Shown piece by piece: positions 326 to 26,806 of a DNA stretch of 26,806 nt. Source of the DNA: a virus. The stretch lies in IMG/VR virus record IMGVR_UViG_3300037400_003307, positions 1 to 26,806 of that record. One strand, written 5' to 3'. Position 1 is the stretch's first letter; each line of letters begins with the position of its first letter. The translations under genes and the position numbers were made by a program. The notes beneath the pieces are model-generated. The model ran no database searches. It had not been told where the DNA came from and saw only the letters and a list, made by a program, of their open reading frames with translations.

Positions 326-1366
326 TTATCCATTATTTTGTATTAAAGTATTAAGTTGCTTTTTAATGTAATCTATATCTTGTTTTATCTTTTCTTGGTC
401 CGTCATATAAGTTTTAGTAAAATCTAATCTCATATTTGATATCTCAATTACAGATTCCTCTGGTTGTTTTGGATATCTAGTTATCTTAACAACTCTTTGT
501 TTCTGTTTAATCCTCTTGAGCTTATCAACCAAGAAAATAGTATCGCCTAAATTAACTTCATCTCCAATAGAAGAAAGCTTTAGCTTATAACTGCATTTAG
601 GCTGTGAAAGTTCTTCAAGATATAATTCAGCAGCCTTCTTTAAATCTTCAGCATACTCATACTTTTCATCGACCCATACCTTTTCGATGTATTTGTTTGT
701 GTATGTATTGTTAGTAAGATATTTCTTTCCTCCATTAACTGAAGATATATTAAGTCCGTCTTTTCCATAAGGATAGAGGACAGTGCAATACTCATATGAA
801 GATGATTGTTTGGATAATTGTTGAAGCTTTAATTCATTTGAATAATAAGTTCCTATTTGTTTACCCATTCTACCTTGATCGTAAATAATCACCTTCTTAT
901 TTTTTGTATCAAACCAAAACTCTTGATTGTTATCTGCGGCAATGGTCTTGATCATCTCAAAGCCTGACTTATTAGCTTCTTGATATGTGATCATTGTCCT
1001 ATTTTCACTCTGATAATCAATAGACCAATCTGGAGCTTGGCTAATACAGTATTCATATCCTTGCTGTAGGTTTAGCCTATACAAGTCAAATACTTCAAAA
1101 TTGATTCCAGCCAATTCTTCATAATTAGCAATGCAGAATACTTTAAAGAAAGAGTTATCATTCATAATTACTTCTTTAATTATATAACTGTAGTCTGCGG
1201 TCTCGAGGTAGTTTTCCTCTACTAAATTGGCTAAATTTATGTCATTAACTGGGGCATAAAACTCTAGGTTTCTTGTCCCTGTGGCTAATTGTTCAATAGT
1301 ATGAATATCTTGGCAGGAATCTAAAAGCATTAAAAAACGCTTATTAGTATCATATATTTTGAACAT
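326..1366 (-). CDS. Tail-tip protein, Tal-like (phage minor structural protein / prophage-tail N-terminal region only; no C-terminal lysin or fibre extension)
   Basis: The N-terminus MFKIYDTNKRFLMLLDSCQDIHTIEQLATGTRNLEFYAPVNDINLANLVEENYLETADYSYIIKEV follows the pattern of Gram-positive siphovirus Tal N-termini. It is the last gene of the tail module and its ATG overlaps the upstream stop (TAATG). Confidence 0.6.
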   Translation of the reverse strand: MFKIYDTNKRFLMLLDSCQDIHTIEQLATGTRNLEFYAPVNDINLANLVEENYLETADYSYIIKEVIMNDNSFFKVFCIANYEELAGINFEVFDLYRLNLQQGYEYCISQAPDWSIDYQSENRTMITYQEANKSGFEMIKTIAADNNQEFWFDTKNKKVIIYDQGRMGKQIGTYYSNELKLQQLSKQSSSYEYCTVLYPYGKDGLNISSVNGGKKYLTNNTYTNKYIEKVWVDEKYEYAEDLKKAAELYLEELSQPKCSYKLKLSSIGDEVNLGDTIFLVDKLKRIKQKQRVVKITRYPKQPEESVIEISNMRLDFTKTYMTDQEKIKQDIDYIKKQLNTLIQNNG

Positions 1367-1716
1367 TAGATATACCTCGCATTGTATTCAATTGAAATAT
1401 TAGCCAATGATCCACTAGGGATTGTAATTTCATTTACTCCTGGCTGTAACTTTGGGAATTCCCATCCATTATAATGACTAAAATAATCTTGGTCATTGAG
1501 AAGGACTTGTCTGTTCTCTCCATCAATGACCAAGACATCATTAGCATGAACCCCACTTACCTCTATAGGTTCATCACTCAATCCAGTAATAGAAAGAGTG
1601 ATGAAATCTACTTGAGGAATTATAGTTACTAGGCAAGGAGCTGGAGCAGTTCCATTATTTGTAATAGTGAAACTGCTACCATTATTATCGAATTCAATTG
1701 GATAATAATTCTCCAT
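1366..1716 (-). CDS. Distal tail protein (Dit) C-terminal domain encoded as a stand-alone 116-aa protein
   Basis: FTITNNGTAPAPCLVTII...DVLVIDGENRQVLLN...WEFPKLQPGVNEITI...ISIEYNARYI matches the characteristic C-terminal half of Sipho_tail/Dit proteins (N.G.a.P.i.i ... d.l.iD.e...v..n ... fp.L.pG.N.i ... ry). It has its own strong RBS (GGGAGG, 5 nt before the ATG), 11 nt after the giant ORF stop. Confidence 0.65.
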   Translation of the reverse strand: MENYYPIEFDNNGSSFTITNNGTAPAPCLVTIIPQVDFITLSITGLSDEPIEVSGVHANDVLVIDGENRQVLLNDQDYFSHYNGWEFPKLQPGVNEITIPSGSLANISIEYNARYI

Positions 1717-1727
1717 ATTTGCCTCCC

Positions 1728-4700
1728 TTATTCAACTATTGATAAGTTATTAGCTGTTTTCTTAAGCCAACCTATACCAGTATAAATCCAATCATGATCT
1801 GCATACATTACTGAAATAGCTGTAATTCTATCTCCATAATGATATTGATCAATCAAGTAATTATTATCCTCTATTGGATACTGGTAATAATTTGTATTAA
1901 CTGCTACAACATAATTAGTTCCATCTTCAACGGTTCTCTTATGTGTATTAGAATATGGAATCCAACCTTCACCAGTAAAGTATGCGGCAGGAGTTCCATC
2001 ATTAGTATAAGAAGCTGTGCAATAAGAAGTTAATACCATTGGATCTGTGCCATAATCAATTTCACTACCAACATTTTGGAAATATGGATCTTTTTCGCAA
2101 CGAATTATTTGTCCATTAATGGATCTGATACCAATAGTTTGCTTTTCAAATGTATAACTTATACTTTCTACTGCATATCCAGAAGTAATAATAGTAGCAT
2201 TATTTTCTGGAAGCCATTGATCTCCTGTATATAACCAACTACCTGATACTAAATTACTTTGCGGATCAGCATATCTTAAAACAGGAATTATTGTATTTTG
2301 ACGAATAGTTCTTACTCTATCTGCATAAGTATCTGGCCAATTATAAGTTTGAGTATCTGTAGAAATTTTATAAATTGAATTTATAGTTTCATACTCAAAT
2401 TCTTTATTGGCAAAATAATTGTATGCATTATTTTCATTAATTTCTTGGTTTCTCAAGAAAATTAAATCTTTACCATCTCTAGTTGGTTGAAGAGTTCCAG
2501 AATAAGAACTACTTGGTTTAATAGCTCCATCTGTTAATCTATAACTTCTAGCAAAATCTCCAGTTAATAAATCAAATAATCCATTATCTGGCATTCTTTC
2601 CTCTTGACCATTCCAATTGTATCTCACTCCTTTTGGAACTGGAACCCAATAGTGAATCATCATAAAGTTTTCATAAGCTATATTGTCATAAATAATACCT
2701 GATAAGTGTTGATAATCATCAGAACCTCCAATAACACTATTGGAGTATGGGTCTGCGGTCATTAGATATCTATCCGCACTACCTCTACCTAATGCATATC
2801 CTTTTAAGTTAGTATTATCATACATACGTAACCAATCTGAATCATACATAGATTGAGCTTGATCTTTTAATAAATAATATCTAGGTTCTTTATTAAGATA
2901 TTCATTTCCAATTCCAAGAACTAAAGTAGGACTTGATCTAAAGTTAGAAAATGTGTAGAAATAACTATCTCCAACTTCTGGATTATCTAATAAAGTTTGA
3001 ATATTACCACCTCTAGTATCCCAAGTTTTAATATAAGGCGGTATATAACCAGTAACATGTGTATTAGCAGCTTCATTATAAAGATCAGTTAACCAGTAGA
3101 AACTACCATTCCAAGATTTACTATAATAATATGAATCTTCAGAAGTGTCTAAAGTATCACTTGTTTTAACAAATGCTTTAGTAATTTCTCCTGAAGTATA
3201 AATATCGTAAATTGGATGTTCTGTATATTCTCCTGGTTCAAAATAATTATATGTTCCTGCCATATTAATACTTATTCCACGATTCTTAATATAATGAGTT
3301 TCATTACTACCTCCAGTATAATGAATAGTGTAATAAGTGCCTAAATAATTAGGCTGATTCCATAGCTTATAAGTATTAGGATCAAATGGTGGATATACAA
3401 CATATTGTGTTCCACATCTGACTAATTCATTAAAAGTAAATTTAATATTATCTTTATTCCAAGGTCTTGGATTCCAAAGATAAACACCATCGCCAAAGCC
3501 TAAAGGTTTATATAAATTTTTATCAAATCCAAAATAATCCCATGTTAAAGTTAATTCAGTATCTCTATAAAGAGTTGGTTCAATATCAACTGTAATAGTT
3601 CCACCATACTCTGAAATCAATTCATAATAAGCAGTATCTAAAGCTCTAACATAACCTACAATTGTAGTATCATTACAGTCTTGAACTGGATAAAATTGTT
3701 GCGTCATTTCTCCAGTAATACGTAAAACAGTTTTACCATCGCAATCATAATTAGTAACTGATTGTGAAGAATCATCTGGTTCAGAATAAATAACTAAATA
3801 ATGAGGATCAACTGTCTTACGAGTTTTTAAATATCCATAGTCAATTTGTTCTTCCTGTTGCCAAGAAGTTTCTATGAATTTATCCCAATCTGGGTTCCAA
3901 TCTGATATTGAACAAGTAAATGCGGCAGTGCCTAAAAGATTTACTGGAATAGTTTGATACTGATAATATTTGCAAGTATAACTATAAATTGTTTCAGGAT
4001 ATACAAACTCAATTTCATGTAAATCTGAAAGATTCGCATAAGATAAAGTAAGTTCTGGAACTGAAGCTTGATTATGGAATCTCAATTTATACTGCTGTGG
4101 ATATATTCCAACAGAAGATAAGGTAGGGTCTGAAAAATCAACTTCATCTAAATGAATTACATCAATTCCTAATCCATTATAAAGTTTACCTGCTTGATTA
4201 AATGAAATATCTTCATTCTTAATCCAACTATCTTGTGCTGGACAATAACACCATAACCTATCTATAGTCATTTTAGTTATTGTAATTTCAGAACCAAAAG
4301 GAATAGTAGCTGTTTCTTGATCAGCTACATCATAATCTGGATTCTGACCTGGACCAGTAACAGGATCAGTTTGGTTTAATAAAATCCATCCTGCTTGGTA
4401 TTCATCAAGTCTACCCCATCCATTCCTTTCTTCAGTAATAGTGTAATTATCATTTTCAATAATCATTGCTAAAGTTGGGAACTTGCGGGCTGGGCCTCTG
4501 TGGATACCAGCAAACTTATTTCTAACATACACTTGATAAGGAATGAAGTAGTCATAATCTTCATCCTCATATAAGGCTGTATGATAGTGGTTGTAATATT
4601 TAATAGCTCCATTTGGATTTAATACAACCGCATCTAAATCACAATCTAAATAGTTAGGACTATCTTCATTGACTGTAATTAAAGTATCATCATAAGCTCC

Positions 4701-7700
4701 TTGTCTATAATATTCTACATATAATAAATTTGGAGCTTCTTGTTTAGTTAATTTATCATATACAACAATTGGTGATGGAGCATCAATGAATGCTTCTATA
4801 TCATCATTTTCAATTATTGATTCATCAAATACTAATCTTCCATGAGCAAAGTCTTCATCATAGAATAAGTCAACGTCTATACCAAGATCATCTAAAGAAG
4901 TAGCATTTTGAATATCTTCTAATGAATAGAATATATCTCTAGAACCCACTCTTACATTATCTTTGTAATAAACAACTGTCTTTGTGAAGTTTCTTAACTT
5001 ATAATAAATATTCATTGCTCCCATCTCGTAGATGTTTGCAAGTGTCATATTTTGGAAGCTTAAATCAGTATCTAAATCTAATAATCCATCTAAATGGAAA
5101 TCATCAGGTTTATAATCATTAAATTGAAGAATATCTTCAATCTCTTCATTTGATTCATTATACCAAGTAGGAACATTTACAAATTGATTTGTAATAAATG
5201 AGTTATCATAATCATAATAGTTAGCTACTGTTTTACCATAGATAGTTGGATCTGGAATACAATTAAGCGGTAATACTTCATTTGCCTCAATATTTTGCAC
5301 TACATGAACTGCAGAAGTTTGAGGACCTAAATAACTATCATATGTATAACTTCCACCTTTATTACTATTTCCAAAGAATATTTCAGTAACTAAATCAAAT
5401 AATCCATTAGCTGGCATTACATAATCATAAATTTGATCTCCTTCAGCTACTGGAATAAGATTTCTTACCAATCTATCTTGATCATAAATCTTAATACCCC
5501 AAATTGCACAACCTGTCATTTGCGGGAAAGCTGGAGCTTGGAAACTAGCATAAAGAATATTTCTAGTTTGAGATTTTGTTTCAAAGATTGGTTGACCACT
5601 TCCATCTGTTCCTGTCATTACTAGAGAAGTAGTAGTTACAGATGTTGAAAAATCGTGATCATATGGATTTCCTAATGCATGACTAGAAAGATTCATACTA
5701 CCAGAAACACCAAGATAAGGCATTACCGTTGGATTAAACGGCATGATATTTACATTACCTGTATCAGGATTTGTAGTTTGGAATAATGATAATGTTCCTT
5801 TTGGCTGACAAATATTTTCAAATAATGGATTATCTTCTGATTCATCAAAATTATATACAGTAGGAGTATTGCTATCTCCATCTCTCCACTCTGAACCATA
5901 ACTATTATAAGCGTCAAGAATCATTGTATATGGATTACCACAAGCAGTTCTTTGTCTAGTTGTTCCACCAGTGGCTCTATTTATACACCAGTTAGGAATA
6001 TGATCACATTCTGGAAGATTCTTTAATATTTGAGATTCTACATCGGTTACATAATATGAATTAATATTTTCTTCATCCGTTCTAGTAAATCCATAATTAC
6101 TATAAGCTTTAATAACATTATAGTTATCATCATAATCACTATATTTACCTTTTCTATAAACGGCTTGAATACCTGTAAATCTTAATTTTGGCTGTCCAGA
6201 AATTACTGTAGCAGCATCTCCTGCTCTATAATAAGCTTGTCCATCAATTGTTTGTGGGCCAGCAGCTGTATATACATAACCACCAGCTTCTGGAACTCTA
6301 CATCTAAATGCAAAACATCCAGAAGAAGAAGGACTTATAGCAGATCCTCTAGGAGTTCCATTTGCAGAAGCAGAAATACTAATTCCACCCCTATCTCCTT
6401 CTTCAGTTCCTAAATAAGCTTCACCTAAAGCTCCATAGTAACCGAAGAAATAAGTATAAGCAAAATCTTGATACATATATTGTGCTGTATTAGTTCCAAT
6501 ACCCCAAGGTCTTGCATAACCTTTTAACTCAACTCTTAATCTGCTTATATCTTTTGGTTTGTATCCTAAATCAATATAAGGAATTTTTCCTCCATAAAAA
6601 CGATCGCTTCCATGAATATCATTAAAGTAATCTTCATCATTAACTTCACCCCAATAAAGAACCTTTTGTTCATATGATAAAGATTCTGGATCATGAGGTT
6701 GAGTCATTTCTTCATAAACTATTGCTACTTCTTCAATTGCGGCCAAGTCAGCAAATGTAGAATATGATGTAGAACTATTTTGAATCTGTCCACCATTACA
6801 ATTTGCAGGTTTATATTTATTAACATATCCATTAGGAATAGTATCAAGAATATAAATTGCAACTCCTGGTTCAAAGTCATCTATATTAATTCCCCAAGTG
6901 GTAGAAGCAATAAGATTTTCAGTATTGACAGAGTTTTTATAATAATTTACATCTAAATAAACCGTATCTACTAGATATACAATGGTATACATTTCTTTAA
7001 GTTTACTTGGATTATCAATCCTTTCATCCATCTCATACCACTGATATGGTTCACCATCTTTATAATAATTAGCTGGTTTATGAAGATTTTTATTTATATA
7101 AAAATCAATATATTCGCCATCTCTAAATTGAGTTTCATCGAATGTTAAAACTTCAGAAGCTATAGTTTCATAAGTTCTAATTCCATAAACTTTTTTAATA
7201 TAGCGAATAATTGTTGTATATGTTTCAAGCTCTCTGTCTGCTGCTTTATAAACAATCTCATATGGAGAATGATCAACAACTCTAGTAAGAGAAACTTTTG
7301 TGCCAGGATATTCGAAATCTGTCTCGAACCCCTCTGGCTTATATTTATTAATACGAACTATATCTCCAAAAGTAGGAGCTTGATAGAAATCTCTTTCGGA
7401 GATTCCAATAGTTTCTTCTTCGATAAGTGTTCTAACACCAACATTATTTTCAGTGTAATATTTAACAGTAATTGTATTAGCTTGTTCTGGATAAACAACT
7501 GTATAAACGGCATTGTTCATATTGTCGAAATCCCAAACTAAAGTAGAAGCATCTACAATTTCACCAGGTTTATAGTATGATGGTTGATATAAATCAATTT
7601 GGAACTTTTCATAAGGATCAAATATTTGATCAACAAAGTCACTTGCTCTAAAATAATAAGCAACACTTTGCATGAAAGTTTCACCCTTATAATAATTTAC

Positions 7701-10589
7701 ATAGCAATGACCGATCTTATGATCTAAATTAGTATCAGTATATCTTTCATCATCTCTAATATTAAAACTGTTTTGTCCAGTAGCATCCTCAAAGAAAGTG
7801 CCTGTAATTTTATCATATAAGCAATTTGAAGGAGCAACTTGATCACCAATCTTATCATAGAACTGAACTGGAATATAATCTCTAATTAAAGTTCCATTAT
7901 AATAGATACGACAACTATAAATACCAATACCAGCTAAACCATCTTCATATGTTCCACCATTATTATTAGCAAACAAATATAATGGATAAGGCATCTGTGC
8001 GGCCTCGCTTGCCATTGTGTTACTATAAGTGAAGACCGCAGTAGAATAACCAGGTCTTTCAATAGCATAAATACCAGAATTTGCTGAAAAACCAATTGCA
8101 GCATCTTCAGTTTGAACCAAAGTGTCAGAATAAAGTCCTGCTTTTGCTTCATATGTATTCACACCTGTAAGATTCTCACCATATTGTGTCTGGTTGTTAA
8201 ATCTCATAAAATATGATCCTAATATTGAACTAGAACCAAATAAATAACCATAACCTGCATTTACATTGTGTAAAGGAGCATCCTCATCTACTCTTTCGCA
8301 CTCCATTACTACAGTTAATTTGCTCATATCTTCAACTGAAACACCAGTATTAATATAAGCATGATTCATTGTCCAATTAGGATGCAAAGATTCATAATCA
8401 CCTAAATCATTATGTTCAAGGAAAAGGAATCTATGTGGATAATCTAAATCTCCACCTGGTTCCATAACAGTTTCATAAACTACATTTAAACTTGTTAAAT
8501 TTCTTAATGATTCAAAATTAACAGGTCCATGATACTGAAGTTCGCCATCATCACAATAACTAGGTTTATATGCATTTATATTAAATCCTAAATCATATAA
8601 AGTTGTATCAACCGTAAAATCAATAACCTTATATGATATTGAACTACTTCCAATCCAATTTAAATCATCTACATCATCTGTATAATATCTAACTGGAGTG
8701 ATAAAAGTAGAAGCCATATAAACTACTGTATAATTTGATTCAATTTCATCAAATGTGAGAAGGGCAGTTGAACTATAACCATCTAAAATACCATTCTCAT
8801 AGTAATCTGGCTTATAAAGATTCATATTAAATACATCTTTAAGTCTAATACCATTTATAGTATCAGCTTCATTAATAGTAATGATTGATGTATTAATTGT
8901 TGCAAAAGTAGAAGATAACTCTTGCTTATATTTTAAAATAATATTTTTTGTGCGGGCAGCTACTATTTCCTCAAAATAAATGAGAATAGGAGAAGCTTGA
9001 GTCAAACCCGCTAGTGTTACAGGGCCATCATATGAAAGAAGAGCGTCAAATTGAAAACCTTCTGGTCTATAACTAGAAATTGGAATAATATCACTTAATA
9101 CTGGATCTCCAATAAAATCTAACGCATTAATAGTAAGTTCTGTTACTACAGGTTCTTCATCTGGCACATGGTATTGAACCTGAATAGTATAATCAATTGG
9201 TTCATAATAAACCTGTAATACTCCACTAGAAATAACAGCATCATAACTATCATAAATACTGCTATTATACAAAACTCCATTCTGATACTCTGAAGTATGA
9301 TATTTATTTAAATCTAAATTAATATCAGAAAGATCAAAACTTTCTTCGTATGATTCTTTATAAACAGTTGAAAGTGTAGTTGTAGATAATCTATACCAGC
9401 CTGGATAAACTCCAATATAATATTCTACAAAAACAATATTCGTAGATTTAGCATATTTAATTTCATAACTAGATTCTACGCCGTCATAATCAACCAATTC
9501 TGTAGCACTGTGATCTTCAATATAACCTTCATTGTAGTATGTTGCTGTTGGTCTATAAGCATTTACATTAAGAATTTCTCCAAGAGTCATTCCATCTGTA
9601 AAATCACTTTGTTTAAATACTTTTGTAGTAGCTCCAACAGTGGAGAAAGAACCATTATCGTCTTCTTTTTTATAAGTTACGGTTACATTTTTAGTTAAAT
9701 CGTTTTCCAATCTATCATAAAAAACATAAATTGGACTTACAGCTAATAAGTTTTCTACAGTTAAAGCTCCTGTAAAAGCTATTCTGCCAAGATAACCTTC
9801 TGGCTTATAACTTTTAATATCAACTAATTGTCCAATAGACTGAATGTTCTGTAACTGCGGATAAGTAAACTGAATATTGTTAGTAAACATATCCTGATAA
9901 ACACCAGTGCCGTTATCCATGTAATAATTAATAGTTAAGTTATAAGCTATAGGAGCATAATTAATAATAAGAGTTCCTAATGACTGTAAGTTTTCATAAG
10001 TAATTTCTCTGCCGCCAAGATTTGTAGCAATACCTTCTTGATAATAATTAGGTCTATACTTATTTGTTTCAATACCTATAGAAGCTAATGTATTATTAGT
10101 ATCCTCAAACATTGCTGCTCGAATAGTAACACTATCAGTTGATAATAAAGTTGTTGAGTTCTGATAATATAAAAGAGTTAGTTTAAAACTGCTTGTATAA
10201 TTTGCATCAGTTGTGTAAACCTCTCTTTCACCTTTTGCATAATCAGAAGTAAAACTATAATCAACTATAAAATTACCATTCTTTAATCTTCTTGGACTAG
10301 CAGAACCAATCATACTAACATCAAAATAATAATCTAGATCATCAAACTTTAATGTAGCTTTCTTAAGCATATTAGTAAGTTTGCTAATTCTTAAGAAAGC
10401 ATCATCTTCGTCTTGAGCAAGCACTAAAAAAGACAGTTTAATGTTTTTAAAACTGTCTTGCTGTCTTATATAAGTTGGTTGAATATCTCCATCTAACCAA
10501 GCTTCTTTTGTGCTTACTTGATTACTTGAAATGACTCTATCATATAATTTAATGCCGAGACTGCTTAATTCAATATTATTAATTAACAT
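1728..10589 (-). CDS. Giant (2,953 aa) modular tail-tip adhesin: Dit N-terminal ring domain fused to ~14 beta-rich ~83-aa repeats, three lectin/jelly-roll-like modules and ~6 SH3b-like modules
   Basis: Uninterrupted 8,862-nt ORF. The ATG is preceded by GAGGAGG and overlaps the upstream stop (TAATG). aa 1-125 resemble the Dit N-domain (LSSLGIKL..., DDLDYYFDV..., GNFIVDYSFTSDYAKG). The recurring [NS]xY[KR]P..[YF] motif and the SH3b-like GW...GW(I/L) motifs are detailed in the findings. Confidence 0.85.
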   Translation of the reverse strand: MLINNIELSSLGIKLYDRVISSNQVSTKEAWLDGDIQPTYIRQQDSFKNIKLSFLVLAQDEDDAFLRISKLTNMLKKATLKFDDLDYYFDVSMIGSASPRRLKNGNFIVDYSFTSDYAKGEREVYTTDANYTSSFKLTLLYYQNSTTLLSTDSVTIRAAMFEDTNNTLASIGIETNKYRPNYYQEGIATNLGGREITYENLQSLGTLIINYAPIAYNLTINYYMDNGTGVYQDMFTNNIQFTYPQLQNIQSIGQLVDIKSYKPEGYLGRIAFTGALTVENLLAVSPIYVFYDRLENDLTKNVTVTYKKEDDNGSFSTVGATTKVFKQSDFTDGMTLGEILNVNAYRPTATYYNEGYIEDHSATELVDYDGVESSYEIKYAKSTNIVFVEYYIGVYPGWYRLSTTTLSTVYKESYEESFDLSDINLDLNKYHTSEYQNGVLYNSSIYDSYDAVISSGVLQVYYEPIDYTIQVQYHVPDEEPVVTELTINALDFIGDPVLSDIIPISSYRPEGFQFDALLSYDGPVTLAGLTQASPILIYFEEIVAARTKNIILKYKQELSSTFATINTSIITINEADTINGIRLKDVFNMNLYKPDYYENGILDGYSSTALLTFDEIESNYTVVYMASTFITPVRYYTDDVDDLNWIGSSSISYKVIDFTVDTTLYDLGFNINAYKPSYCDDGELQYHGPVNFESLRNLTSLNVVYETVMEPGGDLDYPHRFLFLEHNDLGDYESLHPNWTMNHAYINTGVSVEDMSKLTVVMECERVDEDAPLHNVNAGYGYLFGSSSILGSYFMRFNNQTQYGENLTGVNTYEAKAGLYSDTLVQTEDAAIGFSANSGIYAIERPGYSTAVFTYSNTMASEAAQMPYPLYLFANNNGGTYEDGLAGIGIYSCRIYYNGTLIRDYIPVQFYDKIGDQVAPSNCLYDKITGTFFEDATGQNSFNIRDDERYTDTNLDHKIGHCYVNYYKGETFMQSVAYYFRASDFVDQIFDPYEKFQIDLYQPSYYKPGEIVDASTLVWDFDNMNNAVYTVVYPEQANTITVKYYTENNVGVRTLIEEETIGISERDFYQAPTFGDIVRINKYKPEGFETDFEYPGTKVSLTRVVDHSPYEIVYKAADRELETYTTIIRYIKKVYGIRTYETIASEVLTFDETQFRDGEYIDFYINKNLHKPANYYKDGEPYQWYEMDERIDNPSKLKEMYTIVYLVDTVYLDVNYYKNSVNTENLIASTTWGINIDDFEPGVAIYILDTIPNGYVNKYKPANCNGGQIQNSSTSYSTFADLAAIEEVAIVYEEMTQPHDPESLSYEQKVLYWGEVNDEDYFNDIHGSDRFYGGKIPYIDLGYKPKDISRLRVELKGYARPWGIGTNTAQYMYQDFAYTYFFGYYGALGEAYLGTEEGDRGGISISASANGTPRGSAISPSSSGCFAFRCRVPEAGGYVYTAAGPQTIDGQAYYRAGDAATVISGQPKLRFTGIQAVYRKGKYSDYDDNYNVIKAYSNYGFTRTDEENINSYYVTDVESQILKNLPECDHIPNWCINRATGGTTRQRTACGNPYTMILDAYNSYGSEWRDGDSNTPTVYNFDESEDNPLFENICQPKGTLSLFQTTNPDTGNVNIMPFNPTVMPYLGVSGSMNLSSHALGNPYDHDFSTSVTTTSLVMTGTDGSGQPIFETKSQTRNILYASFQAPAFPQMTGCAIWGIKIYDQDRLVRNLIPVAEGDQIYDYVMPANGLFDLVTEIFFGNSNKGGSYTYDSYLGPQTSAVHVVQNIEANEVLPLNCIPDPTIYGKTVANYYDYDNSFITNQFVNVPTWYNESNEEIEDILQFNDYKPDDFHLDGLLDLDTDLSFQNMTLANIYEMGAMNIYYKLRNFTKTVVYYKDNVRVGSRDIFYSLEDIQNATSLDDLGIDVDLFYDEDFAHGRLVFDESIIENDDIEAFIDAPSPIVVYDKLTKQEAPNLLYVEYYRQGAYDDTLITVNEDSPNYLDCDLDAVVLNPNGAIKYYNHYHTALYEDEDYDYFIPYQVYVRNKFAGIHRGPARKFPTLAMIIENDNYTITEERNGWGRLDEYQAGWILLNQTDPVTGPGQNPDYDVADQETATIPFGSEITITKMTIDRLWCYCPAQDSWIKNEDISFNQAGKLYNGLGIDVIHLDEVDFSDPTLSSVGIYPQQYKLRFHNQASVPELTLSYANLSDLHEIEFVYPETIYSYTCKYYQYQTIPVNLLGTAAFTCSISDWNPDWDKFIETSWQQEEQIDYGYLKTRKTVDPHYLVIYSEPDDSSQSVTNYDCDGKTVLRITGEMTQQFYPVQDCNDTTIVGYVRALDTAYYELISEYGGTITVDIEPTLYRDTELTLTWDYFGFDKNLYKPLGFGDGVYLWNPRPWNKDNIKFTFNELVRCGTQYVVYPPFDPNTYKLWNQPNYLGTYYTIHYTGGSNETHYIKNRGISINMAGTYNYFEPGEYTEHPIYDIYTSGEITKAFVKTSDTLDTSEDSYYYSKSWNGSFYWLTDLYNEAANTHVTGYIPPYIKTWDTRGGNIQTLLDNPEVGDSYFYTFSNFRSSPTLVLGIGNEYLNKEPRYYLLKDQAQSMYDSDWLRMYDNTNLKGYALGRGSADRYLMTADPYSNSVIGGSDDYQHLSGIIYDNIAYENFMMIHYWVPVPKGVRYNWNGQEERMPDNGLFDLLTGDFARSYRLTDGAIKPSSSYSGTLQPTRDGKDLIFLRNQEINENNAYNYFANKEFEYETINSIYKISTDTQTYNWPDTYADRVRTIRQNTIIPVLRYADPQSNLVSGSWLYTGDQWLPENNATIITSGYAVESISYTFEKQTIGIRSINGQIIRCEKDPYFQNVGSEIDYGTDPMVLTSYCTASYTNDGTPAAYFTGEGWIPYSNTHKRTVEDGTNYVVAVNTNYYQYPIEDNNYLIDQYHYGDRITAISVMYADHDWIYTGIGWLKKTANNLSIVE

Positions 10590-10831
10590 TAATAGCCTCC
10601 TCTTTGGTTTTTTAAAGCTAATTCATTTGATATACCTTCAATTGACATTCCTTCAGTTGATGAATCATTAATATAAGCTTGATTTGCAATATAAGCATTC
10701 ATTTGATTTTCATTAAACCCCATATTATTAGATAATTCATGAACAGAATTTAATAAATCTGTTCCTGCGGATAAATTTTCAGAAGGATATAAACTTTTTC
10801 TTTCAAGTTCTTGACTTATATTTTCTTCCAC
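10589..10831 (-). CDS. Hypothetical 80-aa protein in the position normally held by the tape measure gene (GTG start)
   Basis: GTG start at 10831, 9 nt after AAGGAGG. Its stop overlaps the giant ORF's ATG (TAATG). No recognisable motif. Confidence 0.5.
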   Translation of the reverse strand: MEENISQELERKSLYPSENLSAGTDLLNSVHELSNNMGFNENQMNAYIANQAYINDSSTEGMSIEGISNELALKNQRGGY

Positions 10832-10835
10832 AATA

Positions 10836-11348
10836 TTAATCCTCCTTAATATTTAAAGATTGAAAAGTTAATTTTCTTTCTTCACTACTTCCAATTTGAT
10901 ACCCTTTATCTTCAATTAGCCTAATATCAGCTTTTAAATTATTTCTTTGCTTTAAAGCAATTAAAAAAAGATTTGCATCAATTTCTTTTCTTCGTTTAAA
11001 ACCTTCATATGCCATATTTATATCTTGAAGTGTCATTTGATAAAAATCACAAGGAGCTATACCCATTTCTCCAACGATTCTGGTGTATAGCTCCTCGATT
11101 TCTATAGGAGTTTTTGAAAGAAAATTATGATTTATATAATTATCAAGCAAATTTATTTCAGATTCAGAACACTTATTAAGAAGTGCTTTTACATCTTGAA
11201 ATGTCATATTTGGTTGATCTGTAATGAAACCAGAAAAATAAATTAATAATTTTTCATCTTCATCTAAATATAACAAATCATTAAACATTATTAGCCCTTT
11301 AAGCCCAAAACGGAAACTATATATAGCACCGTCTTTGCTTAAAATCAT
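10836..11348 (-). CDS. Tail assembly chaperone (gpG-like), putative
   Basis: Lies immediately downstream of the major tail protein with an ATGA overlap. Size, acidic character and the motif ...GIAPCDFYQMTLQDINMAYEGFKRRKE... are typical of Gram-positive siphovirus chaperones. Confidence 0.5.
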   Translation of the reverse strand: MILSKDGAIYSFRFGLKGLIMFNDLLYLDEDEKLLIYFSGFITDQPNMTFQDVKALLNKCSESEINLLDNYINHNFLSKTPIEIEELYTRIVGEMGIAPCDFYQMTLQDINMAYEGFKRRKEIDANLFLIALKQRNNLKADIRLIEDKGYQIGSSEERKLTFQSLNIKED

Positions 11349-11734
11349 ATTATATTTAATTCTCCATTTCCTAATAACTGCATATTATATTTAAATTGCC
11401 CGTTATATCCAGCAGATACAGGGAAATTAGTTATAATTGCATTACCTTTATATTTTTTATTATTAATTCTAACTTCAACCTCAATGTCAGCATTATTCAT
11501 AAAAGCTTCTTCCAAAAGGTCATAAGATTTAGAATTAATTATATATAACCCAGAACATGCAATACTCCAAGTTTTTAAGCCTGACAATCTTTCTTGCCAG
11601 TCTCCATTAATTTGATTAGTAATATCAATAGCAGAGGCAGAGCGATTCAGACTAATATTTTGCTGTCCTGCAACAGCTTTATCATTTATATAAAGGATTA
11701 CATCAATCCCCTGTCTGACTTGTTGTTTCATCAT
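11345..11734 (-). CDS. Major tail (tube) protein, TP901-1/phi13-like, putative
   Basis: 129 aa, located between the tail-terminator-like gene and the chaperone. The pattern ...GLKTWSIACSGLYI...FKYNMQLLGNGEL fits. RBS GAGGAGG. Confidence 0.55.
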   Translation of the reverse strand: MMKQQVRQGIDVILYINDKAVAGQQNISLNRSASAIDITNQINGDWQERLSGLKTWSIACSGLYIINSKSYDLLEEAFMNNADIEVEVRINNKKYKGNAIITNFPVSAGYNGQFKYNMQLLGNGELNII

Positions 11735-12337: not shown

Positions 12338-13000
12338 TTATGTAATTATAACGTTTGGCGTATATACAAAACCACCGCCACCACCAGATCCAGCTTTTTC
12401 AATTCTATCGACTCTTTCAGAAAAACTTTGACCTACCATAACTTGAACTGTTGTAGTAATAAATGCAGTTATAAAAGAGGCTACTATAGCTCCTGCCATA
12501 GCTGCTAATGAACCACCTATGCCCATAGCGCCAGGTAATCCTTGAGCATTTAATCCTGCTTGAGCATTTCCATATTTATCTGCTTGTTGAGCGGCTAAAG
12601 CTTGAGCTTGTTGTTCCATAGCCTCTTCTTCTGCCAATATTTGTTCTTCTAATTGAGCGTCTTCTTCAGCTTGACTCCATAAAGGTTCTGCTGCGGCCAA
12701 AGCTTCTTCTAATGCTGGAGTAAAATAAGGTTGTGCAGCTTGACACCAAGTCCCATATTCTGGATACTGCGCATATTCACAATCAGTTTCCACCTCACAA
12801 AATGAATTGCCATCAGTATCTGCGCTCAATGTTGATTGTAAATATCCAGTATCTACTGGAACAAGATCATCTGCTACAGATAAAAAAGTATCTACAAATA
12901 CATCACAACCTGGACCATAATCTGGACGCACATTATATGTTTCAGTAGCTTCAATATAACCAAAGTCACTTATTACATCAAAACTTGCGTATAAACCCAT
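12338..13000 (-). CDS. HK97 gp10-like head-tail joining protein with an unusual C-terminal acidic coiled-coil plus Gly-rich hydrophobic extension
   Basis: LVPVDTGYLQSTL is the hallmark gp10-family motif (PVDTG.L..S). aa ~100-145 are an E/A/Q-rich helix. aa ~150-190 (GAMGIGGSLAAMAGAIVASFITAFITTTVQVMVG) are hydrophobic and Gly-rich, followed by GSGGGGG. Confidence 0.6.
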   Translation of the reverse strand: MGLYASFDVISDFGYIEATETYNVRPDYGPGCDVFVDTFLSVADDLVPVDTGYLQSTLSADTDGNSFCEVETDCEYAQYPEYGTWCQAAQPYFTPALEEALAAAEPLWSQAEEDAQLEEQILAEEEAMEQQAQALAAQQADKYGNAQAGLNAQGLPGAMGIGGSLAAMAGAIVASFITAFITTTVQVMVGQSFSERVDRIEKAGSGGGGGFVYTPNVIIT

Positions 13001-13680
13001 TATATCTTTTCCTTATATATACAAAACAAATACGTCTGTTCAGAAGCACCATATAACCCATACCAAGAAGATGCATTTGCTGGTTTTAAAGTTATTGTTG
13101 TTGATGATCCTCCAACACTAACTGTCATATTTATATTTGATCCACCTTTAACTTTAGTAACAGTTCCATTATCATATTTATATATGGCCAATGGAGACGC
13201 TGGAGTTCCACTAGGATAAGTTGCAGAACCACTACTTCCTAATGAAACTGGAGTGCATACTAAATAAAAATAATATGAAGCTTTAGGCAATGTAAAAGTC
13301 ATAGAAGCTGAAGTGCTTTTTGATGTAAATGTTCTATAATAAAAACTTCCTTTTCTTACTGCACCGTCTTTCCATGAATAAATATCCATTGCTGGACCTT
13401 CATAAGTTCCTTTTACCCCCAAAATATTAACATTCTTTTTTATTTTAGATTCAACGATATCTGAATCAGATACTTTAGCTGTAGCATAATTTGTAACATC
13501 TATTGTATCCATGCTTGTAATATATTTCATTCCACTTGGAGTAATACCACCACCTGTTGTAATTCCATTTACTGCAGTAGCCATTTCAGCCACCGTCATA
13601 GTGTCACTATCTCCAGTTTTAGCTCTTATAGCATCACCAAGAGCAGTTAAGTCACTAGTATTTTCTAAACTATATGCCAT
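13000..13680 (-). CDS. Hypothetical structural (fibre-associated) protein
   Basis: N-terminal LTALGDAIRAKTGDSDTMTVAEMATAV is a motif I associate with phage fibre or receptor-binding accessory proteins. TAATG coupling on both sides. Confidence 0.4.
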   Translation of the reverse strand: MAYSLENTSDLTALGDAIRAKTGDSDTMTVAEMATAVNGITTGGGITPSGMKYITSMDTIDVTNYATAKVSDSDIVESKIKKNVNILGVKGTYEGPAMDIYSWKDGAVRKGSFYYRTFTSKSTSASMTFTLPKASYYFYLVCTPVSLGSSGSATYPSGTPASPLAIYKYDNGTVTKVKGGSNINMTVSVGGSSTTITLKPANASSWYGLYGASEQTYLFCIYKEKI

Positions 13681-14081
13681 TAATAACTACCTCCTACTGT
13701 TACAGATTCCCAACTATAAATTGGGGTTAAATTAACTCCAGAAAGAGTGCATTTTAAAAAATATGTTCCAGCATTAGATGGAGCAGAAGGAAGACCAGTT
13801 ACTGTCGATCTAATTTCATTATTAGCATCTATACTAATACCAGTTCCAGCACTATATGTTGTATCAGTATCAGTAGCTGAAATAACGCCATTGCTAATGG
13901 TTATAGAAGAACCATCAACTTTAACTCCTCCAAGAGTAGAAGTAGAAGCGGTAGGCAGACTATATTGAGAAGGCATATTTGTATTAATATACTGCTTAAT
14001 TAACCGAGCAAATCTTTCAAGCCCTCTTCCATCAATATAAATGTTGTCATATTGACTTCCTATACCTTGTTCTCCTGCCAT
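13680..14081 (-). CDS. Fibre-like protein (133 aa)
   Basis: STLGGVKVDGSSITISNGVISA and YSAGTGISID motifs are typical of phage fibre shafts. The second motif recurs in the 537-aa fibre. Confidence 0.5.
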   Translation of the reverse strand: MAGEQGIGSQYDNIYIDGRGLERFARLIKQYINTNMPSQYSLPTASTSTLGGVKVDGSSITISNGVISATDTDTTYSAGTGISIDANNEIRSTVTGLPSAPSNAGTYFLKCTLSGVNLTPIYSWESVTVGGSY

Positions 14082-14100
14082 AATAATCCTCCTTCCTCAA

Positions 14101-14637
14101 TTAAGAAGCTGATGCAGCACTCCAAATTGAATCAATTTCAGAATTAGTAAGGGTGTCAATAGACATAGAAGTATCTCCAATAATCTCCCAAGCATTATTA
14201 ACATAAGCATATTCTGTATATACTTGATTAGTTCCAGAAGTAGATTTAGGAACTAAATAGATTTTTGAAGTTGAAATATTACTTGAAGGTAATGTTTGAA
14301 CTATTTCAAAACTAAAGGTTCCAATACCACTAATTGCAGATGTAATATCTGACATTGTAGCAACCTTATTTGAAGATGCATTATAAGCTGTATTAAATAC
14401 CAAAGTGTCTTGCTTTCCACTTACGTCTGGAATATCGCTCATTGTAGCTACTTTATTAGTAGATGAATCATAAGCTGTATTAAAAACAAGAGCATCTTGC
14501 TTACTAGCTAAAGCACTAGCATCAGCCTTACTGGCTAAATCACTTGTGCTTGCCTTACCAGCTAAAGCAGTTTTAATCAAACTACTAAAATAAACTAATT
14601 TATCACCAGTTAAAACTTTATTATCATATGTTGCCAT
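14101..14637 (-). CDS. Fibre-like protein with a 29-aa tandem repeat
   Basis: KQDALVFNTAYDSSTNKVATMSDIPDVSG / KQDTLVFNTAYNASSNKVATMSDITSAISG (nt ~14329-14502). It shares the IVQ.LP...IY.V...Y.EY.Y.N.AWE.IG module and the C-terminal LTNS(D/E)I..IW motif with the 537-aa ORF. Confidence 0.55.
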   Translation of the reverse strand: MATYDNKVLTGDKLVYFSSLIKTALAGKASTSDLASKADASALASKQDALVFNTAYDSSTNKVATMSDIPDVSGKQDTLVFNTAYNASSNKVATMSDITSAISGIGTFSFEIVQTLPSSNISTSKIYLVPKSTSGTNQVYTEYAYVNNAWEIIGDTSMSIDTLTNSEIDSIWSAASAS

Positions 14638-14649
14638 AATAAAATCTCC

Positions 14650-16263
14650 TTATTCGTTTTCCCAAATAGCAAGAATATCACTATTTGTTAAATATTCGAT
14701 ATCACTATTAATAGTGTCATTTGTAATTGAAATACCTGTTCCTGCAGAAAGAGTTGGAGGAAGTTGTCCCATTGTAGCTGCATCCATAGCATTTTCTCCA
14801 ACAGCACCTAAAGTAAGCTTTCCAGCTAACCATTCATTACCAGACCAGTCTAATGTGCGGGCATTAGATCTATTATTATCAGAATCTCCATTACCTACTA
14901 CTTCAATATGAGGTCCTCTCGCACTTAAATGAGATGAAGAATATGTAGTTCCATTATCTTCTGCGATATTATACTCACCAAAAACATGTTGAGATCTAAC
15001 ATATGTTACTGTTCCTTGTCCTTCTGTGTGCGAATAATACCCTCCAGATAGTGTCTCGCATCCTTCAGCATGTGAATAATTTCCATTTGCATAGCTTCTA
15101 GAACCTTCTGCATGAGCTCCTATTGCTTGAGCTCTAGTCGCATGTCCTTCAGAATGTGCATAGGCACTAGTAGCCGCTGTTCCATTTCCTTCAGCATGAG
15201 AAGAAATTCCAGAAGCATTAGAACCATCTCCTTGAGCAAAAGCTTTTTGACCTGTAGCTGTAGTATTATAGCCAATTGCCATAGAATTTTTACCCAATTT
15301 ATCAACAGCTCTGTGTTCATCATTGGCGCCAATACTTCTCAAACTACCTTCAGCTGAACCATTAACTAAATTAGTAGCAGTAGAATAACCACTCAAATCA
15401 ATAGCAGTGCTTCCAATAGTCTCCCAAGCTCCATTAATATACATATATTCATCATATATGTTGCTTGAAAGACCAGTGCCAGCTACAAAATAAATTGTAT
15501 TTGAATCTCCAGTAGTAGGAAGTTCTTGAACAATTTCAGTGTTAAAAGAAGTAATATTTCCAACAGCAGCTGCAATTAAAGAATTAACTTCTGTAGTTGT
15601 AGTTGCTCCCACTTCTTGAGCAGTATATGTTGGCTTTTCTGCGGCCTTGGCCCAACTAGGAACAGTGGGATCAGTCTCTGTGAAAGAATCTAATTTAGCA
15701 TTCCAATTACTAATATCTTGTTGTGTAATACCTGCTGCAGGTGCTGTGCTTGCAATTGCACCTACTTCAGAAGCCGTATATTCTGGTTTAGCAGGCTGTT
15801 TCGCCCAATTAGGCACTGTAGGATCTGTTTCAGTAAAAGAAGTCAAATAACCAGCATCATTATTAAATGCACTTACATCAGTAGGCACTGTAGGAATAGT
15901 TGGTTTATCTGAAAGATCAGTATAACTTCCACTTGTAGCCACAGTTGCTAGACTACTAGAGTCAGCCTTGGCCGCAATCACTTCACTTACAGCTCTATTG
16001 TCTTGTTCAGACATAGTTATAGTAGAAGCGTATATATCTACAGCAATGCCTGGATCTCCTTTTGGTCCTTGTGGTCCTCTTGGGCCTTGAGGTCCTCGTT
16101 CTCCTTGATCGCCCTTATCTCCCTTATCACCTTTTGGACCTCTTATAGGATCGGATAAAGTAGCTTCAATCGTAGGAGGAGGTGTAAGAGATGCTTCTAA
16201 TTCAGGGCCATCAAAATCAAGAACAGGATTTTGAAAATCAAGTTCATAAATTTCATTAGCCAT
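14650..16263 (-). CDS. Collagen-like fibre protein with YadA-head-like (SHAEG) repeats
   Basis: Ten G-X-Y triplets, GPKGDKGDKGDQGERGPQGPRGPQGPKGDPG (nt 16048-16140). VSAFNNDAGYLT motif. A 28-aa repeat SFTETDPTVP(N/S)WAK..(A/E)KP.YTA.EVGA occurs twice (15757-15840 and 15604-15687). Serial S.A.G / SHAEG / SHSEG / AHAEG / SHTEG repeats at nt ~15004-15291. Confidence 0.75.
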   Translation of the reverse strand: MANEIYELDFQNPVLDFDGPELEASLTPPPTIEATLSDPIRGPKGDKGDKGDQGERGPQGPRGPQGPKGDPGIAVDIYASTITMSEQDNRAVSEVIAAKADSSSLATVATSGSYTDLSDKPTIPTVPTDVSAFNNDAGYLTSFTETDPTVPNWAKQPAKPEYTASEVGAIASTAPAAGITQQDISNWNAKLDSFTETDPTVPSWAKAAEKPTYTAQEVGATTTTEVNSLIAAAVGNITSFNTEIVQELPTTGDSNTIYFVAGTGLSSNIYDEYMYINGAWETIGSTAIDLSGYSTATNLVNGSAEGSLRSIGANDEHRAVDKLGKNSMAIGYNTTATGQKAFAQGDGSNASGISSHAEGNGTAATSAYAHSEGHATRAQAIGAHAEGSRSYANGNYSHAEGCETLSGGYYSHTEGQGTVTYVRSQHVFGEYNIAEDNGTTYSSSHLSARGPHIEVVGNGDSDNNRSNARTLDWSGNEWLAGKLTLGAVGENAMDAATMGQLPPTLSAGTGISITNDTINSDIEYLTNSDILAIWENE

Positions 16264-21573: not shown

Positions 21574-21584
21574 TAACCTCCTTA

Positions 21585-22826: not shown

Positions 22827-23050
22827 AGGAACAATACATTACCGTGTTGCACCAAGAGAGCACGAAGTAAAAATGCGGTTCGGAGGTCAATATCTCTTCC
22901 AAGAGCAAAGGCCTCTTTGACTTCTTCTTCGTTGTCTGGGTCTACTTGATAATCAATACTTCTTAATTCCATAAGGCATTTAGAAAATTCATTACCAGCT
23001 TCACCAGCTTTCTTATAAGCTTCTTCTATTTGTTTTTTAATCTCTTCCAT
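22823..23050 (-). CDS. Hypothetical protein (75 aa) between terS and terL
   Basis: ORF coupled to terL by an ATGA overlap. No motif recognised. Confidence 0.45.
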   Translation of the reverse strand: MEEIKKQIEEAYKKAGEAGNEFSKCLMELRSIDYQVDPDNEEEVKEAFALGRDIDLRTAFLLRALLVQHGNVLFL

Positions 23051-26709: not shown

Positions 26710-26806
26710 AATTAAAGACCTCCTGACTCCTTATAAATAAGCTTCTAGTCAAGAGGTCTTTAACCTCAATAAAGTATTGAAAATCCTAGTTGGTGGAGCG
26801 TACGAG
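26680..26806. repeat. Second copy of the 127-nt terminal overlap (equals nt 1-127)
   Basis: Identical by eye to nt 1-127. Confidence 0.9.

Follow-up and report, generated by a model that had tools for sequence, protein, structure and literature searches.

What does a phage with a genome of less than 27 kb do with one open reading frame (ORF) of 8,862 nt? The genome in question is IMG/VR virus record IMGVR_UViG_3300037400_003307, analyzed here over the full 26,806 nt of the record (hereafter the window), which represents a circularly assembled genome with a perfect 127-nt terminal repeat (positions 1–127 identical to 26680–26806). The ORF runs along the minus strand from 10589 to 1728 (1728..10589), starts with ATG, counts 2,953 codons and encodes a protein of 337 kDa (P0001, hereafter the giant protein); of the 26,679 nt of unique sequence, the ORF accounts for 33.2%. 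The answer that we favor, with a probability of about 0.72, is that this protein consists of the ring domain of a distal tail protein (Dit) fused to a multivalent glycan-binding arm of ~2,820 residues that serves as the main host-recognition device, the C-terminal domain of Dit (Dit-C) being supplied by a separate gene. In siphophages, the tail tip is universally organized around Dit. Related proteins and loci found in other contigs are designated below by P and L numbers, respectively.

The giant ORF is a real single gene. At the base composition of the strand, the probability that 2,953 codons contain no stop is ~1e-112, and the remaining two same-strand frames hold 195 and 465 stops. A GAGGAGG ribosome-binding site (RBS) stands 7 nt 5' of the ATG, which overlaps the stop codon of an upstream 80-aa ORF in the sequence TAATG. 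These signals, like the length, the strand and the 33% share of the genome, are those described in an earlier reading of the window made from its letters alone (hereafter the sequence-only reading), and all were reproduced. The start of the gene is fixed, since M1, I3 and N4 are invariant across the family. A protein search (E <= 0.001) returned more than 230 clusters of homologues at 90% identity, on separate contigs; among the 120 clusters listed, the proteins are 2,829–3,033 residues long, display 48–84% identity and are borne by independently assembled contigs of ~11–28 kb (JGI, ENA, Logan) with the same gene order. For a repetitive protein encoded on a metagenomic contig, one could suspect a chimera or another assembly artefact, arising for instance from a repeat-driven mis-join or from collapsed repeats. 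However, no DNA-level repeats were found inside the gene, the repeat units of the protein being only ~24% identical to one another, and the same length and domain order recur in the >230 clusters from independent assemblies, down to 48% identity. Furthermore, the number and positions of the units are kept in divergent members of the family, namely representatives of other 50%-identity clusters (13–15 units). Mis-assembly is therefore excluded for practical purposes, an artefact being vanishingly improbable.

The protein is acidic (isoelectric point 4.39) and rich in Tyr, Thr, Asp and Asn. Taken as a whole, it has zero matches in Pfam, PHROGs and NCBIfam; phmmer and a 65-sequence profile retrieved nothing from all PDB sequences, even at E 10; and 50,697 GenBank phage records gave no match, either to the window by megablast or to the giant protein by tblastn.

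As judged from structure modeling, structural comparison and profile searches, the first 130 residues (10200..10589, minus strand) constitute a true N-terminal ring ('belt') domain of Dit. The AlphaFold2 (AF2) model of residues 1–215 (model A; mean pLDDT 76.9) displays a long beta-hairpin (13–30/40–56), a helix (61–75) and a beta-sandwich, i.e. the combination that characterizes the ring domain of Dit. When compared to the PDB with Foldseek, residues 1–130 retrieved tail-tip or baseplate structures of siphophages, monocin and gene transfer agent (GTA) at ranks 1 to 7 (probability 1.00), the top sources being the monocin tip, the p2, 80alpha, TP901-1 and Douge baseplates, and the GTA virion. 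A chain of the Bxb1 tail tip came at rank 10, the tail-tip matches having probabilities of 0.98–1.00. As expected of this fold superfamily, the lower ranks were occupied by relatives of tube, terminator and Hcp proteins.

Profile searches link the same domain to Dits of ordinary size. A profile of residues 1–132, run against 1.84 billion representative proteins, gave 165 matches, 72 of which are 200–260 residues long. All six sampled proteins of 230–242 residues (P0172 included) matched phrog_33 and phrog_202, both of them 'Dit' families, the match spanning nearly the full length in four cases, and five of the six carried PF22768 ('SPP1_Dit, C-terminal domain') at ~138–242. By itself, the N-domain of the giant protein (residues 3–126) aligned with positions 41–170 of phrog_33 (E 0.004); residues 1–160 have no match in Pfam, PF05709 included. 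The sequence-only reading had placed a Dit ring domain at residues 1–125 and suggested that this be checked with AlphaFold and Foldseek: the check returned Dit-type matches rather than none, and Foldseek ranks 1–7 and the profile links to ~230-aa Dits agree with the proposal.

The second half of Dit is encoded next door. A 116-aa ORF with its own GGGAGG RBS lies 11 nt past the stop of the giant gene, in another frame (1366..1716, minus strand). It matches PF22768 from end to end (positions 1–97 of 97, E 7.8e-12, beyond Pfam's curated cut-off) and aligns with positions 174–278 of phrog_33 (E 6e-21), a segment that directly continues the one aligned with the N-domain. By contrast, PF22768 has no match in the giant protein itself, in which the ring and galectin-type domains are not joined in one chain as in an ordinary Dit. 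Since the 116-aa ORF corresponds to the C-terminal domain and the giant protein to the N-terminal one, Dit is split in two. The two halves are found together in the unsplit, 236-aa P0144, residues 4–122 of which match the profile of the giant's N-domain (E 1.5e-29), while residues 132–236 match the hidden Markov model (HMM) of the stand-alone 116–118-aa proteins (E 2.9e-30). The split order, with the giant gene followed by Dit-C, is kept in L001, L002, L007, L010 and L012, that is, everywhere the region is readable. These sequence relationships indicate that an ancestral ~235-aa Dit gene underwent fission and that the ring-domain gene was extended. The galectin-type domain, now encoded on its own, probably continues to decorate the Dit ring.

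A frameshift or readthrough event fusing the giant gene to Dit-C was considered and rejected. Every Dit-C gene has its own start, and the gap that separates it from the giant gene is 11 nt out of frame in the window, 18 nt in frame in L001 and 17 nt in L007; this variation in gap and frame between loci argues against programmed readthrough or frameshifting. Downstream from Dit-C comes Tal (326..1366, minus strand), a 346-aa protein reduced to the structural N-terminal part, with no extension (PF06605 Prophage_tail, E 9.4e-34; TIGR01665, E 2.4e-23). The giant gene had been described as sitting between chaperone genes and a Tal-like gene; Tal is indeed nearby but does not directly adjoin it, as the 116-aa Dit-C gene intervenes.

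The arm itself spans residues 131–2953. It begins with seven tandem units of ~84 residues (array 1, residues 131–708; 8466..10199, like all features of the arm on the minus strand), in which a central loop ends with the motif N-x-Y-[KR]-P. An HMM built from these seven units, which scores them at E 1e-19 to 1e-31, detected four more units within residues 956–1295 (array 2, 6705..7724; matches at 961–1036, 1034–1117, 1120–1203 and 1208–1295, with E 2e-7, 3e-16, 1e-5 and 4e-10) and two within residues 1780–1947 (array 3, 4749..5252; matches at 1784–1866 and 1864–1947, with E 5e-8 and 1e-5), the second of which carries a degenerate motif, DLFYD. Weaker matches at ~2131–2200 and 2304–2402 fall in residues 2131–2402 (3384..4199), which comprise a weak repeat (2131–2200) and a last repeat (2199–2242 and 2330–2402) interrupted by an SH3b-type domain. 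The total thus comes to 14–15 units of ~84 residues, a count with which sliding family profiles concur; as a control, 200 shuffled copies of the giant protein gave 9 weak matches in total. About 14 diverged copies had been listed in the sequence-only reading, and the motif positions given there agree with ours within one residue. Because the number and positions of the units are conserved in divergent members, the array must be old rather than the product of recent slippage.

In model A, the repeat unit folds as beta-beta-long loop-helix-beta. Individual Pfam scans of 78 repeat units (E up to 1) gave no match to MucBP, Flg_new or Flg_new_2, and no other family recurred; a profile of the 78 units gave chance-level matches only in the PDB (actin-capping protein, E 0.05); and hhalign comparison of the repeat with the Flg_new_2 units of relatives yielded a probability of 0.1%. 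Membership in MucBP (PF06458), Flg_new (PF09479) or Flg_new_2 (PF18998) therefore failed every sequence test, and the MucBP- or Flg_new-like style remarked on in the sequence-only reading, which asserted no family, has no backing at the sequence level. What the giant protein shares with MucBP and InlB B-repeat/Flg_new adhesins is the use of strings of ~70–90-aa beta-rich spacers to present distant binding modules, together with a superficial sequence likeness (V-x-Y-Y ... Y-K-P-x-G-Y ... V-x-Y). Unlike the giant protein, however, these adhesins are held by a cell-wall anchor and not by a phage tail ring, and its units have no Pfam match.

Three large globular modules alternate with the repeats. 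Module 1 (residues 709–955; 7725..8465) is the most conserved stretch of the giant protein, with 68–85% identity to P0001 among 122 homologues and with invariant His, Asp and Glu positions. Its AF2 model (model B) is all-beta (pLDDT 58.8, pTM 0.62). Foldseek matched it in the PDB to galectins, coronavirus S domain 0, LamG, clostridial neurotoxin Hc and GH16 structures (E 3e-3 to 0.09), the best superpositions being those with galectins and lectins (TMt ~0.5), and in BFVD to uncultured-phage, 'LamG-like jellyroll' and 'ConA-like lectin/glucanase' proteins, down to E 7e-9. Pfam and PDB profile searches revealed no sequence-level relation to the ConA, LamG or galectin families. On the strength of these fold matches, a beta-sandwich of ConA/LamG/galectin type is the probable fold of the modules. 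Module 2 (residues 1296–1779; 5253..6704) is a paralogue of module 1 with insertions and a variable patch at 1500–1550: profiles of segments 701–770 and 876–945 match 1288–1353 and 1691–1747 (E 3e-14), respectively. Module 3 (residues ~2403–2700) is followed by a C-terminal part of ~250 residues with weak internal repeats (together residues 2403–2953; 1731..3383); its paralogy is apparent from the profile of residues 2626–2695, which matches 890–935 and 1690–1741 (E 1e-5 and 5e-6). The three modules have common starts and a common C-terminal motif.

Further stretches of the arm had been read as SH3b-like. Residues 1948–2130 (4200..4748), a proposed SH3b-like pair, form a highly conserved region (72–77% identity in the family) without assigned fold and with no hhalign link to the SH3_3-type segment. 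Residues 2244–2330 (3600..3860), inserted in the last repeat, are a better case. P0001 itself has no Pfam SH3_3 match, but residues ~2244–2330 align with the stretches of P0037 (2340–2396, E 1.9e-14) and P0042 (2379–2434, E 2e-8) that match SH3_3 (PF08239), which supports a single SH3b-type domain, presumably for cell-wall binding. This insertion is missing from about three-quarters of the homologues (gap fraction 0.73). An HMM of the SH3_3-type insertion found no second copy in the giant protein, and hhalign gave no link between the insertion and residues 1948–2135 or 2700–2953. Thus, while the three large modules announced by the sequence-only reading stood up, and proved to be paralogues, only one of the six or so SH3b-like modules did.

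The conservation pattern divides the protein in two. Residues 1–2240 are conserved, whereas residues 2250–2953 are hypervariable and exchanged between relatives: identity drops to 13–45% with many gaps over residues 2403–2953, and many homologues cover just 71–76% of the giant-protein query. Such a pattern, a conserved body with a swapped hypervariable end, usually marks a receptor-binding end.

Smaller relatives show the same design with shorter arms. P0145 (679 aa, L022 3280–5319), P0155 (831 aa, L003 4668–7163) and P0161 (1,054 aa, L021 10001–13165, on a 19.6-kb contig) possess a Dit N-domain homologous to that of the giant protein (E 1e-23 to 1e-28). However, their arms are 3–5 times shorter and carry one to four Pfam Flg_new_2 (InlB B-repeat) units, of which the giant protein has none. 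P0155 comprises Dit-N, one NKYKP unit akin to those of the giant protein, a single module that shares its C-terminal motif with the giant's modules, a set of three Flg_new_2 repeats and, finally, a C-terminal domain. In these loci, the arm gene is preceded by the tube gene and two small ORFs (79 and 51 aa in L022, 88 and 58 aa in L003, 90 and 57 aa in L021). As in the window, a separate ORF whose end resembles Dit-C lies downstream, with a ~340-aa Tal after it where readable: 59-aa and 214-aa ORFs and a 339-aa Tal in L022, a Dit-C-like ORF cut by the contig end in L003, and a 220-aa ORF and a 339-aa Tal in L021. The 220-aa ORF of L021 aligns with positions 175–275 of phrog_33 (E 0.004), and the ORFs of L022 and L003 match the Dit-C family HMM at 1e-5 and 1e-4; by these matches, Dit is probably split in the smaller relatives as well. 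The proteins thus form a size series, from 236 aa (the unsplit P0144) through 600–1,054 aa to ~2,900 aa, and the arm gene accounts for most of the size difference between the 19.6-kb and 26.7-kb genomes.

A tape measure protein (TMP) is long and mostly alpha-helical, and its length sets that of the tail. In relatives whose Dit is of the ordinary, unsplit kind, a gene of TMP size (at least 959 or 482 aa) lies directly upstream from Dit and a long Tal lies after it; in one of these relatives, an 807-aa protein and an amidase are encoded further downstream. In the window, no TMP was recognized: the major tail (tube) protein gene (129 aa, 11345..11734, minus strand; PF06199 Phage_tail_2, E 7.4e-21; phrog_1407) is followed by just two ORFs before the giant gene, one of 170 aa (10836..11348, minus strand), a candidate tail assembly chaperone with 12 homologues, all unannotated, and one of 80 aa (10589..10831, minus strand), a candidate mini tape measure or chaperone with an AAGGAGG RBS and a GTG start. 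Neither of these two ORFs, the 'chaperone genes' of the sequence-only reading, matches any family. Their counterparts measure 88–163 aa in relatives and 51–61 aa in L001, L003, L021 and L022, respectively, and L022, L003 and L021 contain no TMP-sized gene either. This lack of a recognizable TMP is no less strange than the giant gene. Likewise, no receptor-binding protein (RBP) gene follows Tal in the window, where the next gene is the integrase gene, and neither an RBP gene nor a recognizable lysin was found in the window or in the one complete smaller locus.

Note that the 51–80-aa ORF may be a miniature tape measure, in which case the tail would be very short. A G/GT frameshift chaperone pair made up of the 170-aa and 80-aa ORFs was also considered and found no support, the 80-aa ORF having its own AAGGAGG and GTG and neither ORF matching any family.

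With the gene intact, its N-domain recognized, Dit split and the architecture and conservation of the arm laid out, the giant protein can tentatively be placed in a virion. Six N-domains would assemble into the Dit ring, with the last ring of the tube on one side and the Tal trimer on the other, a stoichiometry that we infer from the solved Dit rings, which are hexameric. Each chain would leave the ring at residue ~130 and continue as a long segmented arm, so that six flexible 337-kDa arms would radiate from the tail tip, over several tens of nanometers if extended. Together they would expose 18 lectin-like modules and six variable ends, plus, in some members, SH3b-type domains, and may bind host surface glycans or the cell wall multivalently, with general affinity provided by the conserved modules and specificity by the swappable C-terminal part. 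The short Tal and the absence of a separate receptor-binding gene after it make the arms the leading candidate for the main host-recognition device, in which case they would substitute for the missing RBP.

Several points weigh against this picture. The presence of the giant protein in virions, its intactness there and the binding of the stand-alone C-domain to the ring are presumed. The repeat has no sequence match in Pfam or the PDB. With a pLDDT of 58.8 and PDB matches no better than E 3e-3, the lectin fold of the modules is probable, not proven, and ConA-like folds include glycoside hydrolases as well. As no TMP was recognized, tail assembly may depart from the canonical Dit–Tal–TMP initiation complex that underlies a hexamer. 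Finally, a second possible adhesin is encoded at 13000–16263, and the arms need not be the sole receptor-binding device.

Members of the family differ in genetic code. The giant-gene homologues of L010, L012, L015, L016 and L017 (each from locus position 10001) are interrupted by TAG only, with 9–35 in-frame TAG codons per locus, on invariant Gln columns, while that of L014 is interrupted by TGA only, six times, three of them on invariant Trp columns. The window, L001 and L007 follow the standard code, and the window uses all three stop codons. From these alignments, one small phage family appears to exist in three genetic codes (standard, TAG=Gln and TGA=Trp). The complete TAG-recoded contig IMGVR_UViG_3300021254_000014 (25,718 nt; L019 and L020) contains no tRNA gene according to ARAGORN and no Rfam match. 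As it thus brings no suppressor tRNA, the reading of TAG as Gln must be ensured by the host or by a co-infecting element. The window also has no tRNA gene. Two peptide-pattern scans of 185,579 GTDB species genomes detected no copy of the giant protein, despite the integrase of the window, and, among the 120 clusters listed, the longest contig bearing a giant gene is 28,054 nt long, none being embedded in a host-sized contig.

How do other explanations fare? The main functional rival of a binding arm is a mainly enzymatic one, in which the modules would form an array of depolymerases or glycosidases degrading capsule or cell-wall polysaccharide. GH16 glucanases are indeed found among the fold matches of module 1 (PDB 3axd and 1zm1, and a GH16 domain protein in BFVD), the best BFVD match is named GDSL-like lipase/acylhydrolase, the invariant His, Asp and Glu positions lie in the most conserved module, and the genome has no recognizable lysin. 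Yet no hydrolase was matched in Pfam, NCBIfam, PHROG or PDB sequences, the best superpositions are with galectins and lectins, the GDSL name of that BFVD protein, which is 677 residues long, was probably given for a different domain, and model confidence is low. We therefore consider an enzymatic arm unlikely. Far less probable still is that the giant ORF is, or includes, the TMP. Its gene does fill the TMP slot (tube, 129 aa; 170 aa; 80 aa; giant; Dit-C; Tal), which in classical relatives is occupied by the TMP-sized gene directly before Dit, and no other candidate is available. However, the N-terminus is a Dit ring domain, both AF2 models are beta-rich, and the remainder is a Tyr/Thr/Asn/Asp-rich succession of repeats and lectin-like modules without the long helices and hydrophobic segments of a TMP; at 1.5 A per residue, 2,953 residues would specify a tail of ~440 nm; and in smaller relatives the same slot holds 600–1,054-aa proteins with the same Dit-N start. 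Given that start, the beta-rich content, the graded smaller homologues and the absence of any TMP family match, we rejected this assignment.

A different kind of doubt concerns lifestyle. The element may not be autonomous but a satellite or helper-dependent particle-forming element, with the giant protein serving, for example, for broad sticky attachment, and a helper supplying the TMP, lysis, perhaps replication, and the suppressor tRNA in recoded relatives. The absence of a recognized TMP or lysis gene, of a GTDB copy and of any contig above 28 kb with the giant gene leaves room for such a dependence. Indeed, neither a TMP, a lysin nor a holin-like protein was recognized and the window has no replication gene; there are TAG=Gln and TGA=Trp relatives, one of them a complete TAG-recoded 25.7-kb contig without a tRNA gene; and the giant protein occurs on no listed contig longer than 28 kb and in none of the GTDB scans. 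On the other hand, unlike known satellites, the element has a complete set of head, connector, tube, terminator, Dit, Tal and terminase genes, its unrecognized small ORFs could provide lysis or TMP functions, and one relative has a weak replication-initiator or DnaD-like gene. Helper dependence thus seems to us a minority possibility; it bears on lifestyle and is compatible with a Dit ring domain carrying a binding arm.

A broader proposition, which we advance only tentatively, is that these 19–27-kb elements represent an undescribed siphovirus-derived particle lineage with no conventional tape measure, no separate RBP and no recognizable lysis cassette, in which host recognition would be concentrated in a fissioned Dit whose ring subunit would have grown, through stepwise accretion of modules, from 600 to 1,000 to 3,000 residues into six tentacle-like lectin arms, perhaps longer than the tail, and which would occur in three genetic codes, at least one recoded member having no suppressor tRNA. 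If this were true, the recoded members would have to live in hosts whose code is altered, or else depend on a recoded helper phage infecting the same cell.

With the giant protein taken as a Dit with a glycan-binding arm, the nearest known systems are the evolved Dits (evoDits), which we take to be exemplified by Lactobacillus phage J-1, the dairy streptococcal cos/pac phages, lactococcal 936 phages and Gp28 of Bacillus phage Deep-Purple. EvoDits carry carbohydrate-binding modules (CBMs) that bind host polysaccharides and aid adsorption in an accessory role (PMC7291167, PMC9863714); by definition they are single polypeptides in which loops of the galectin domain host one or two CBMs (PMC7291167). 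Like them, the giant protein is a ring protein with modules that are predicted to be beta-sandwiches of carbohydrate-binding type, and it has Tal as a neighbor. Unlike them, it carries its additions appended after the ring domain, not in loops of the galectin-type domain, which is a separate, compact 116-aa gene product; with 14–15 repeats, three lectin-like modules, one SH3b domain and a variable end, it is several-fold larger; and the phage has no recognized separate RBP, in contrast to evoDit phages. It is thus an extreme form of the evolved Dit, which would function alike but falls outside the structural definition.

Ring-only or otherwise-extended Dits also exist, as illustrated by gpM of phage lambda and pb9 of phage T5, the latter with an OB-fold (PMC7291167). 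The 134-aa chain of RcGTA (6tba) and the 671-aa chains of Bxb1 (9d93), both of them Foldseek matches to residues 1–130, are likewise rings without a galectin domain or with other appendages. Unlike the giant protein, none of gpM, 6tba, pb9 and 9d93 has, in the records examined, an appendage of such a size or an adjoining stand-alone galectin-type gene. Literature searches for giant Dits or TMP-less siphophages returned nothing relevant, and nothing on the scale remarked on in the sequence-only reading was found among the GenBank phages or in the literature searched. The locus illustrates a route that differs from that of evoDits and is far more extreme, with a split Dit gene and a modular arm of ~2,800 residues on the ring domain, one third of the genome being devoted to this arm, which apparently stands in for the usual RBP. 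Its graded relatives (236, 600–1,054 and ~2,900 aa) constitute a natural record of the growth of an adhesion device, in a family that is abundant in metagenomes, although searching the GenBank phage collection revealed no match to it. The lack of a recognizable TMP or lysin and the three genetic codes make this family a good target for isolation and cryo-electron microscopy, and a source of new glycan-binding modules.

The rest of the window is organized as follows. All convincingly assigned genes lie on the minus strand. Transcription order begins with the integrase, small regulators, an HNH endonuclease, a second endonuclease, the terminase subunits TerS and TerL, the portal and a minor head protein; it continues with the scaffold, the major capsid protein, a head–tail adaptor, two small ORFs, and a 537-aa fibre protein with three variable genes; and it ends with an HK97-gp10-like neck protein, the terminator, the tube, the 170-aa and 80-aa ORFs, the giant gene, Dit-C and Tal. 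No endolysin was recognized in the window, a hydrophobicity scan yielded no convincing case of a holin-like small membrane protein, and no replication gene was found in the window. Besides the integrase (25813–26709), the non-structural part comprises a helix-turn-helix protein and the HNH and second endonucleases. In L001, the integrase slot (20368–22985) contains other small genes and a 240-aa protein with weak replication-initiator/DnaD-like matches.

The HK97-gp10-like neck protein (220 aa, 12338–13000, minus strand) carries a C-terminal extension that is first acidic and coiled-coil-like and then Gly-rich and hydrophobic (residues ~162–200). This hydrophobic segment, the sole membrane-like segment among the convincing genes of the window, resembles those of tape measure or ejection proteins, and the extension is kept in the 192-aa counterpart from L003.

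The fibre cluster (13000–16263, minus strand) is located between the head–tail connector genes and the neck gene and consists of the 537-aa protein, which has a collagen triple-helix stretch and YadA-head-like repeats, and of ORFs of 178, 133 and 226 aa. The 537-aa protein is the second candidate adhesin mentioned above, possibly a head or neck fibre. The content of the cluster differs in L001, L002 and L021, and in the window its 178-aa gene contains a 75-nt direct repeat (14341–14415 and 14428–14502) whose copies are 80% identical.

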